Notes under the pieces: model-generated
Told to the model about the DNA's origin: nothing
What the model saw: only the letters and a program-made list of their open reading frames with translations
Database searches by the model: none
Made by a program: the position numbers and the translations under genes
In this document: positions 48,452 through 49,401 of the stretch, piece by piece
Position numbering within the stretch: position 1 is the stretch's first letter
How the letters are laid out: the number at the start of each line of letters is the position of its first letter
Sequence record: PZ179883.1
Length of the DNA stretch: 64,000 nt
Direction: 5' to 3' (one strand)
Source of the DNA: a phage

Positions 48452-48527
48452 TGGTCGAGGCAGTAGGGATCGAACCTACGACCTAGGACTTAGAAGGTCC
48501 TTGCTCTTCCTTCTGAGCTATGCCCCG
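48452..48527 (-). tRNA. tRNA-Arg (anticodon UCU), CCA encoded
   Basis: Hand-folded cloverleaf: acceptor CGGGGCA, anticodon loop CUUCUAA, T-arm GTAGG-TTCGATC-CCTAC. Confidence 0.8.
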
Positions 48528-48530
48528 TAA

Positions 48531-48612
48531 TTGGGGTGACCGATGGGAGTCGAACCCATGACTACGAGAATCACAATCACAATCTCGAGTTCTACCAACT
48601 GAACTACGGCCA
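48531..48612 (-). tRNA. Atypical tRNA-like gene: His-type (GUG) with a 6 nt tandem duplication giving a 13 nt anticodon loop; possible pseudogene
   Basis: Canonical acceptor, D- and T-arms and C73 discriminator; anticodon stem CGAGA/TCTCG encloses TTGTGATTGTGAT instead of 7 nt. Confidence 0.5.
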
Positions 48613-48727
48613 CATTAATACCTACTCCAACAATCAAGATGTCTTCACACGAAATTAAGAGAAGAGTGATCAGTTCAACCCCTATAATCGCGTCAAGTAG
48701 ATATTAATGTGACAGTTGTCACAAATT

Positions 48728-48802
48728 TGGCGGACGTGATAGGATTCGAACCTATAACCAATCGCTTAACAGGCGATCGCTCTGCCATTGAGCTACACAT
48801 CC
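48728..48802 (-). tRNA. tRNA-Asn (anticodon GUU), CCA encoded
   Basis: Hand-folded: anticodon stem ATCGC/GCGAT, loop CUGUUAA, T-arm ATAGG-TTCGAAT-CCTAT. Confidence 0.75.
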
Positions 48803-48806
48803 AAAT

Positions 48807-48894
48807 TGGTGGGGAGTGGTGGAGTCGAACCACCCGAGTCGCAATGACAATGGATTTACAGTCCACACCGCTACCTCTACGGGATAACTCCCCA
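48807..48894 (-). tRNA. tRNA-Tyr (anticodon GUA), class II with long variable arm
   Basis: 88 nt; anticodon loop CUGUAAA; T-arm GGTGG-TTCGACT-CCACC. Confidence 0.75.
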
Positions 48895-48902
48895 AATTAA
48901 TT

Positions 48903-48977
48903 TGGTGGCCCTGGGTGGAATTGAACCACCATCTGGCGATTATGAGTCGCTTGCTTGAACCTTCCAGCTACAGGGCC
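48903..48977 (-). tRNA. tRNA with CAU anticodon (Ile2/lysidine-type or elongator Met)
   Basis: Anticodon loop CUCAUAA; T-arm GGTGG-TTCAATT-CCACC; T4 tRNA-Ile equivalent by position. Confidence 0.7.
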
Positions 48978-48978
48978 T

Positions 48979-49054
48979 TGGTGCTGATTGACGGAATCGA
49001 ACCGCCGACCTTCTCATTACAAGTGAGTTGCTCTACCTACTGAGCTAAATCAGC
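48979..49054 (-). tRNA. tRNA-Thr (anticodon UGU)
   Basis: Anticodon loop CUUGUAA; acceptor GCTGATT/AATCAGC; CCA encoded. Confidence 0.8.
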
Positions 49055-49059
49055 AAAAC

Positions 49060-49149
49060 TGGCGGAGGCGATAGGATTTGAACCTATGAGTCGCCGGAGC
49101 GACTGCCGGTTTTCAAGACCGGTGCATTAAACCACTCTGCCACGCCTCC
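49060..49149 (-). tRNA. tRNA-Ser (anticodon UGA), class II
   Basis: 90 nt; anticodon stem CCGGT/ACCGG, loop CUUGAAA; long variable arm. Confidence 0.8.
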
Positions 49150-49151
49150 AG

Positions 49152-49225
49152 TCTCCGTGGCAGGATTTGAACCTACGACATTCTGCTCCCAAAGCAGACG
49201 CTCTACCAAACTGAGCTACACGGAG
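49152..49225 (-). tRNA. tRNA-Pro (anticodon UGG), 3-prime CCA not encoded
   Basis: Anticodon loop UUUGGGA; abuts tRNA-Ser, like the T4 Pro-Ser dimeric precursor. Confidence 0.8.
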
Positions 49226-49235
49226 TAAATTAAAT

Positions 49236-49309
49236 TGGAGCGGATAATGAGAATCGAACTCACATCATCAGATTGGAAGTCTGAGGTAATACCATTATAC
49301 GATATCCGC
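49236..49309 (-). tRNA. tRNA-Gly (anticodon UCC)
   Basis: Anticodon stem TCAGA/TCTGA, loop CUUCCAA; CCA encoded. Confidence 0.8.
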
Positions 49310-49314
49310 AAATT

Positions 49315-49401
49315 TGGTGCGAGAAGTGGGACTCGAACCCACAAGGAAATCATTCCGCAGCATTTTAAGTGCTGTGCCTTTACCAATTTGACCATTCTCG
49401 C
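49315..49401 (-). tRNA. tRNA-Leu (anticodon UAA), class II
   Basis: 87 nt; anticodon loop CUUAAAA; T-arm GTGGG-TTCGAGT-CCCAC; CCA encoded. Confidence 0.8.

Follow-up and report, generated by a model that had tools for sequence, protein, structure and literature searches.

What do ten transfer RNA (tRNA) genes contribute to a phage whose set differs from that of T4, and why does one of them resist the assignment of an anticodon? The question is raised by a cluster at positions 48452-49401, on the minus strand, of a stretch of phage DNA of 64,000 nucleotides (nt; record PZ179883.1), which is referred to at its full length as the window. We consider it very probable that the region is an accessory tRNA and stable-RNA cluster of a Tequatrovirus, in which the tRNA-His gene was mutated by slippage and the tRNA-Gln gene was replaced by an HNH gene. 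Read in the direction of transcription, the arrangement comprises trna.2, the HNH gene, the tRNAs for Leu, Gly, Pro, Ser, Thr, Ile2 (anticodon CAU), Tyr and Asn, a leader, the tRNAs for His and Arg, a small open reading frame (ORF), rnaD and rnaC. The repertoire, as originally flagged by a first-pass annotation made from the sequence alone, adds little, since many T4-like phages are already annotated with it. What merits further attention is the tRNA-His module, which combines a tRNA lacking G-1, a conserved leader and, in this genome, a natural mutant of the anticodon loop.

The whole window was scanned with ARAGORN, and candidate genes were scored against the Rfam tRNA model RF00005, whose gathering score is 29 bits. 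ARAGORN finds ten tRNA genes, all within the cluster and all on the minus strand, and each exceeds the Rfam score (10/10; 30.3-74.1 bits). The first to be transcribed is tRNA-Leu(UAA) (49315-49401; 59.3 bits), followed by tRNA-Gly(UCC) (49236-49309), tRNA-Pro(UGG) (49151-49225), tRNA-Ser(UGA) (49060-49149), tRNA-Thr(UGU) (48979-49054), a gene with the anticodon CAU (48903-48977), tRNA-Tyr(GUA) (48807-48893), tRNA-Asn(GUU) (48728-48802), an 82-nt gene that ARAGORN reports as 'tRNA-???' (48532-48613; 56.6 bits) and that is an allele of tRNA-His(GUG), and tRNA-Arg(UCU) (48452-48527). Nine of the genes have an anticodon loop of 7 nt, and the His-like gene alone departs from this, with 13 nt. The hand-folded genes and anticodons of the first-pass annotation are thus borne out by both programs, and the sequence agrees with it that tRNA-Pro does not encode its CCA end. 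The packing is indeed tight, with spacers of 1-10 nt where 2-10 nt had been given, except for a gap of 114 nt between tRNA-Asn and the His-like gene (48614-48727) that had been overlooked. Likewise, the limits given for the cluster hold for the tRNAs, while the RNA genes extend further downstream as homologues of rnaD and rnaC.

The identity of the CAU gene deserves a separate comment. Its best matches in E. coli are genes annotated as tRNA-Ile (81.6% identity over the full length), and the experimentally known tRNA-Ile gene of T4 likewise has a CAT anticodon. It is therefore most likely a tRNA-Ile2, with a body resembling host ileX and ileY rather than tRNA-Met, and would read AUA after lysidine modification of C34 by TilS. 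By analogy with T4, the co-oriented genes of the cluster would be transcribed as polycistronic precursors, which the host RNase P and 3'-processing enzymes would then cut.

The ten genes are not particular to this phage. The window belongs to Tequatrovirus, and its nearest GenBank records are DCP2, UTI-E4, a51, S2_01 and KarlGJung, which over 20 kilobases (kb) are about 97% identical to it. A 1301-nt query covering the cluster matched 971 phage records, 159 of them over at least 80% of its length. In the Escherichia phages ACG-C40 (vB_EcoM_ACG-C40, NC_019399), KarlGJung (Bas37, MZ501089) and UTI-E4 (OL870317), the annotations show the same ten tRNAs, with neither their order nor the genes on either side changed, at 96-99% identity (97-99% over the 1301 nt), and these phages also share the HNH gene, the 114-nt leader region and the downstream ORF. 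Since genes and order recur in these three phages and the cluster recurs at such coverage in 159 records, and since Asn and Tyr are already found in T2 and RB9, the ten-tRNA repertoire is already known and the usual one in this branch of Tequatrovirus. The first-pass annotation listed the T4 set correctly (Gln, Leu, Gly, Pro, Ser, Thr, Ile(CAU) and Arg) and was right that the window differs from it. The difference is not new, however, and the suggestion of an unusual set largely falls away with the finding that close relatives carry the same one.

Comparison across the genus, judged from gene order and alignment, indicates that the cluster is modular and that its individual genes are mosaic. 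T4 carries eight tRNAs (Gln Leu Gly Pro Ser Thr Ile(CAU), then segB, Arg, rnaD and rnaC); T2 carries nine (Gln Leu Gly Pro Ser, an ORF, CAU Tyr Asn Arg); RB9 carries ten (Gln Leu Gly Pro Ser Thr CAU Tyr Asn Arg, then rnaD and rnaC); the Salmonella phage UAB_60 has the RB9 arrangement with the leader and His added between Asn and Arg, giving eleven; and JEP6 is reduced to seven (HNH, Leu Gly Pro Ser Thr CAU, a homing endonuclease gene in the position of segB, Arg). T4 shares with the window the genomic position, between the trna.2 and e.x genes, as well as identical tRNA-Leu (87/87) and tRNA-Gly (74/74) and nearly identical tRNA-Thr (73/76) and tRNA-Ser; in contrast, it has Gln and segB, lacks Tyr, Asn, His and the leader, and carries different alleles of Ile(CAU) (47/77), Arg (48/79, unrelated) and Pro. 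The tRNA-Pro of the window (64/75) is also of another allele than those of T2 and RB9. The window also resembles T2 and the RB3-type phage RB9, whose CAU, Tyr (85-86/87), Asn (75/75) and Arg (74/76) genes are identical or nearly so, whereas these phages lack the tRNA-His module and keep Gln, and T2 moreover lacks Thr and has the trna.1 ORF. Module swaps, often beside homing endonuclease genes, would account for such differences in gene content among relatives.

Similarity also reaches beyond the genus. The stretch with the Tyr, Ile2 and Thr genes (48803-49058, minus strand) matches rV5-like phages (Vequintavirus) at about 90%, and the tRNA-Tyr is 83.9% identical to that of the T5-like phage BF23 (H148); these matches suggest an exchange of tRNA genes between unrelated groups of coliphages. 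In UAB_60, a gene that GenBank gives as a pseudo tRNA-Val (L007, 2007-2090) is called Tyr(GUA) by ARAGORN.

The lack of tRNA-Gln, which the first-pass annotation had noticed, has its own explanation: an HNH homing-endonuclease gene of 202 codons (49408-50016, minus strand; phrog_14736, E = 6e-124) has taken its place. The upstream sequence is collinear with UAB_60 and T4 through the first nine bases of tRNA-Gln, which survive as the remnant TGGGAATTA (50021-50029, minus strand), and homology returns at base 1 of tRNA-Leu. The assignment of the gene as an endonuclease derives from PHROGs and GenBank annotations, as its Pfam match to HNH is only sub-threshold. Taken together, the junctions indicate that Gln was lost by gene replacement with a mobile endonuclease gene and not by selection on the repertoire. 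JEP6 has the same HNH gene together with the second homing-endonuclease gene mentioned above. The swap of HNH for Gln illustrates how homing endonucleases shape the tRNA repertoires of phages, and adaptive readings of the presence or absence of single tRNAs need to be tempered accordingly.

In order to relate the remaining genes to codon demand, 93 ORFs of the window (18,344 codons) were compared with 45 annotated genes of E. coli K-12 (14,789 codons). The codons enriched in the phage relative to this host sample are AGA (9.9-fold), AUA (5.1), ACA (3.8), UCA (3.2), GGA (2.6), UUA (2.5) and CCA (1.8), and demand accounts for the seven T4-type tRNAs that serve A-ending codons; CAA is just 1.33 times commoner. 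At the level of amino acids the ratios are 2.18 for Lys, 1.57 for Asn, 1.48 for Tyr, 0.74 for His and 0.66 for Gln. Asn and Tyr are therefore the most over-used amino acids after Lys, in second and third place, and demand plausibly accounts for their tRNAs as well. The cluster would in this way supply codons and amino acids that an AT-rich phage uses far more than E. coli does.

A different role, suggested by the first-pass annotation for the added genes, has to be weighed for Asn, Tyr and His, namely that they make good the loss of host tRNAs of the GUN anticodon type to anticodon nucleases or other tRNA-degrading effectors. Colicin E5 cuts tRNA-Tyr, -His, -Asn and -Asp, and for Asn and His it is this target range that provides the link to a nuclease; the fourth of these targets, tRNA-Asp, has no counterpart in the cluster. 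Support comes from the T5 family, in which a phage tRNA-Tyr rescues the phage from PtuAB, the effector of Retron-Eco7 that depletes host tRNA-Tyr, just as a phage tRNA-Lys rescues from PrrC170 (PMC11555353), and from the resemblance of the window's tRNA-Tyr to that of BF23. A role of phage tRNAs against nucleases, colicin E5 included, has also been proposed, with differences in the anticodon loop from the host isoacceptor as the proposed criterion of nuclease resistance (PMC10264068). No such loop substitution was found in the window's tRNA-Asn and tRNA-Tyr or in the normal tRNA-His, whose 7-nt loops match those of E. coli asnT, tyrU and hisR base for base, so that only a mechanism of over-supply is conceivable. 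Moreover, demand alone suffices for Asn and Tyr, the His gene is damaged in this genome, and our literature search found no experiment on T4-like phages; His, on the other hand, is left unexplained by codon demand. We regard a replacement role for the three tRNAs as possible but rather doubtful. By analogy it may be called plausible for Tyr, while for Asn it is unneeded; it is compatible with the accessory cluster proposed above and could add to it.

The tRNA-His gene is where the cluster departs from those of close relatives. ACG-C40, KarlGJung and UTI-E4 have a normal tRNA-His of 76 nt with a 7-nt loop, and compared with ACG-C40 and KarlGJung the gene in the window shows a single difference, an insertion of 6 nt. 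Where the normal gene reads CTCGA-GATTGT-GATT-CTCG, the window reads CTCGA-GATTGT-GATTGT-GATT-CTCG, with a tandem duplication that forms the tract (GATTGT)2GATT (48569-48584, minus strand). The anticodon loop UUGUGAU is thereby replaced by the 13-nt loop UUGUGAUUGUGAU (48570-48582, minus strand), in which GUG is present twice; the anticodon stem CGAGA/UCUCG, the acceptor, D and T arms, C73 and the CCA end are all intact. The size of the loop is the reason why ARAGORN cannot name an anticodon. The first-pass annotation had therefore been right to call the gene atypical and related to His, yet it is no new kind of tRNA but a normal 76-nt tRNA-His(GUG) with a duplication of 6 nt.

The unmutated sequence already contains GATT twice, six bases apart, and slipped-strand mispairing between these direct repeats would therefore yield exactly this product, a duplicated GATTGT and a loop lengthened from 7 to 13 nt. 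Decoding by the resulting tRNA is probably abolished and the duplication thus inactivating, to judge from the altered loop; the minimum free energy structures from RNAfold are non-cloverleaf for the 76-nt and the 82-nt tRNA alike and are uninformative on function. Loss of the tRNA should be tolerable because the module is optional, being absent from T4, T2 and RB9, and because the phage under-uses His codons.

The duplication appears to be private to this genome, and this in turn bears on whether it is real. A 52-nt query spanning it, searched with BLAST against 50,697 phage records, found it in 0 of 367 matching records, the 360 best matches all being at most 88.5% identical, and the exact 25-mer CTCGAGATTGTGATTGTGATTCTCG had no match in IMG/VR, the JGI metagenomes or the GTDB genomes. 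A feature confined to one sequence, and absent from related records and three large collections, could be an error of sequencing or assembly in a phage with a normal tRNA-His, the more so as short tandem repeats can be miscalled. We think this unlikely. Over 28.7 kb the window differs from UTI-E4 by 28 small insertions or deletions, mostly paired or intergenic and with no pattern of homopolymer or repeat errors, and therefore the assembly looks clean; ORFs of at least 70 codons occupy about 87% of the window, which speaks against widespread frameshift errors; and replication slippage classically yields just such a clean duplication of a whole unit between repeats of GATT. A real, private slippage mutation is most likely. 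As a separate observation, the comparison with UTI-E4 shows another 6-nt tandem duplication, GCAGAA-GCAGAA, at window positions 38537-38542.

Directly upstream of this gene, the 114-nt spacer is itself predicted to be a conserved structured RNA that has so far gone undescribed. Its minimum free energy fold (-32.7 kcal/mol; z = -4.36) was equalled by 0 of 200 shuffled sequences. Folding, covariation and a covariance model delimit a 5' leader of tRNA-His at 48614-48717 (minus strand), with a closing stem P1 of 14 base pairs (bp) and the inner hairpins P2 and P3. In 356 phage records a homologue immediately precedes tRNA-His, and among the matches listed none has an annotation of its own; the homologues come from Tequatrovirus, the Klebsiella phage Roth01 (JD18-like), Karamvirus, Gelderlandvirus and Kagamiyamavirus as well as IMG/VR contigs, and measure 95-104 nt across five genera of Tevenvirinae. 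In an alignment of 13 sequences (A6), P1 is paired in 100% of cells and four of its pairs are changed on both sides, while in the 4-bp hairpin P3 pairing reaches 98% and two pairs covary. For the structure as a whole, pairing amounts to 87%, as opposed to 31-43% when the partners are slid, and the observed covariation score was reached by 0 of 500 shuffles. On the tRNA-sense strand the covariance model reaches 114 bits, against 22 bits on the antisense strand, and many pairs are G-U, both of which argue for a structure at the level of RNA.

The position of the element is as constant as its shape. Every homologue has the 3' end of P1 exactly at position -1 of tRNA-His, and shorter leaders keep the abutting stem: a bare hairpin in the Kanagawavirus PEi26 and the Chrysonvirus phiAS5, a P1 that closes a loop of 31 nt in the Gualtarvirus MP1, and a hairpin of unrelated sequence at the same position in the Vequintavirinae phage KB57. 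The stem ends 0-2 nt from tRNA-His in all but one of 17 loci. The exception is SonariX, where the distance is 8 nt in a 120-nt fold window and where the covariance model instead finds a full element ending at -1. Of some 38 further tRNAs whose spacers reach 25 nt or more, only about 4 showed a comparable abutting stem. Six IMG/VR loci (L016, L019, L021, L022, L023 and L027) were dropped as chance matches of a degenerate pattern. Scanning of 48000-49500 against Rfam 15, with E values up to 10, gave no match overlapping most of 48614-48727; alignment with T4 rnaC and rnaD shows no sequence similarity; the covariance model finds no further copy in the window, and one copy is present per locus; and our literature search returned no relevant description of a leader of phage tRNA-His.

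Several observations surround the leader. Its 5' neighbour (48718-48727, minus strand) contains a UGUCAC motif that nearly copies the 3' acceptor strand of tRNA-His (CGGUCAC) and is able to extend P1 by pairing with nucleotides G1-C5 of the tRNA. In Tequatrovirus the motif has a second potential partner, a GUGACA lying upstream, which would allow alternative structures. In the Salmonella phage STP4-a (L010, 701-830) the leader is intact, at 109 bits, although of tRNA-His only the first bases GTGGTTATAA... are left and tRNA-Asn follows 30 nt on; the leader thus persists without its tRNA. Klebsiella and Enterobacter phages (L008, 875-970; L013, 571-666; L026) have a recurring spacer of 96-97 nt ahead of tRNA-Ser(UGA). 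A paired run of 13 nt in it ends 9 nt before the tRNA, and the spacer may be another structured element between tRNAs.

Could the spacer between Asn and His act instead as DNA, as a promoter or as a protein-binding palindrome? It holds a TTGACG hexamer and the palindrome GTGACAACTGTCAC, and the T4 cluster is split at the corresponding place, between Ile and Arg, by segB. No sigma-70-like site is present on the minus strand inside the spacer, however, and pairing is kept through G-U wobbles that would be A-C mismatches on the other strand, in line with the unequal scores of the covariance model. Given further that the minimal versions in other genera retain only the hairpin, a DNA-level signal is very unlikely, and we retain the structured RNA.

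The tRNA that follows this leader is peculiar at its 5' end. Position -1 of the window's tRNA-His (48613-48614, minus strand) is U, with C73 and CCA, whereas E. coli hisR encodes G-1. The combination of U-1 and C73 recurs in every phage tRNA-His examined (L008-L014 and L032-L038 included), among them all 13 leader homologues, PEi26, phiAS5, MP1, KB57, the Mycobacterium phage Bxz1 and the Vibrio phage D479. In bacteria, the identity set of tRNA-His consists of G-1, C73 and the GUG anticodon, with G-1 as a major element for histidyl-tRNA synthetase (PMC9976931). Without G-1, charging by the E. coli enzyme drops by a factor of over 100, and RNase P is guided to a special site at -2/-1 by U-2/G-1 (PMC5499578). 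An unannotated leader abutting such a tRNA raises the question of how, or whether, tRNAs of this kind are matured and charged. It is conceivable, though we put it forward only tentatively, that the module pairs a tRNA lacking G-1 with a new cis-acting leader that controls its 5' maturation, timing or identity, or that is freed as a stable small RNA. Our preferred guess for the leader is a cis-element acting on 5' maturation or timing that RNase P would release as a stable hairpin RNA. If so, the 6-nt duplication would be a natural knock-out of the module's anticodon loop.

That the expanded loop is itself adaptive, for instance by acting as a decoy or allowing escape where an enzyme recognises the UUGUGAU loop, is highly improbable: the U-G-U-G-A motif is now present in two copies, and the arms, C73 and CCA remain intact with the Rfam score still at 56.6 bits, but the allele is known from this one sequence, none of the collections searched shows it recurring or spreading, and no target enzyme has been identified.

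For the accessory cluster with a slippage-mutated tRNA-His, which we continue to prefer, a number of points weigh on the other side. The duplication rests on a single assembly, and the loss of function of a tRNA with a 13-nt loop is something we infer from its sequence; to our knowledge, an anticodon loop enlarged by 6 nt has never been tested. The host baseline for codon usage is small, at 45 genes of E. coli K-12. For Lys, whose over-use is the strongest of all, the window encodes no tRNA, and tRNA-His is not accounted for by demand, though several hundred phages keep it; supply and demand therefore tell only part of the story. In otherwise near-identical phages, tRNA-His exists as alleles of 76 and 82 nt, a natural pair with which the role of this optional tRNA could be probed.

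Downstream of tRNA-Arg, the window continues with an ORF of 116 amino acids (48085-48435, minus strand; phrog_3355, unknown function), for which no Pfam family was found, and with homologues of the T4 RNAs of species 2, rnaD (47973-48088, minus strand; 85/121 positions identical to T4), and species 1, rnaC (47828-47966, minus strand; 138/139 identical). In T4 and RB9, tRNA-Arg directly adjoins rnaD, whereas in the window the ORF is inserted there. The mechanical list of ORFs contains spurious entries over the two RNA homologues (47884-48012, and the upstream end of 47228-47878).

Some further known systems help to place the cluster. The tRNA-Tyr genes of the T5 family are, like that of the window, phage-encoded and of the GUA type; their anti-retron role was demonstrated in T5-like phages, with a strong dedicated promoter (PMC11555353). 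The species 1 and 2 RNAs of T4 are, like the leader, structured RNAs other than tRNAs within a tRNA cluster, with roles that are unknown even in T4 (PMC3014915); they lie after tRNA-Arg, while the leader lies directly 5' of tRNA-His. A parallel to a leader acting on its own tRNA is synthetic. As reported, engineered riboswitches in 5' leaders control cleavage by RNase P in E. coli (PMC8925977). They are likewise structured 5' leaders, and the UGUCAC motif and P1 of the window could similarly engage the tRNA by pairing with G1-C5; the engineered leaders, however, are synthetic and controlled by a ligand.

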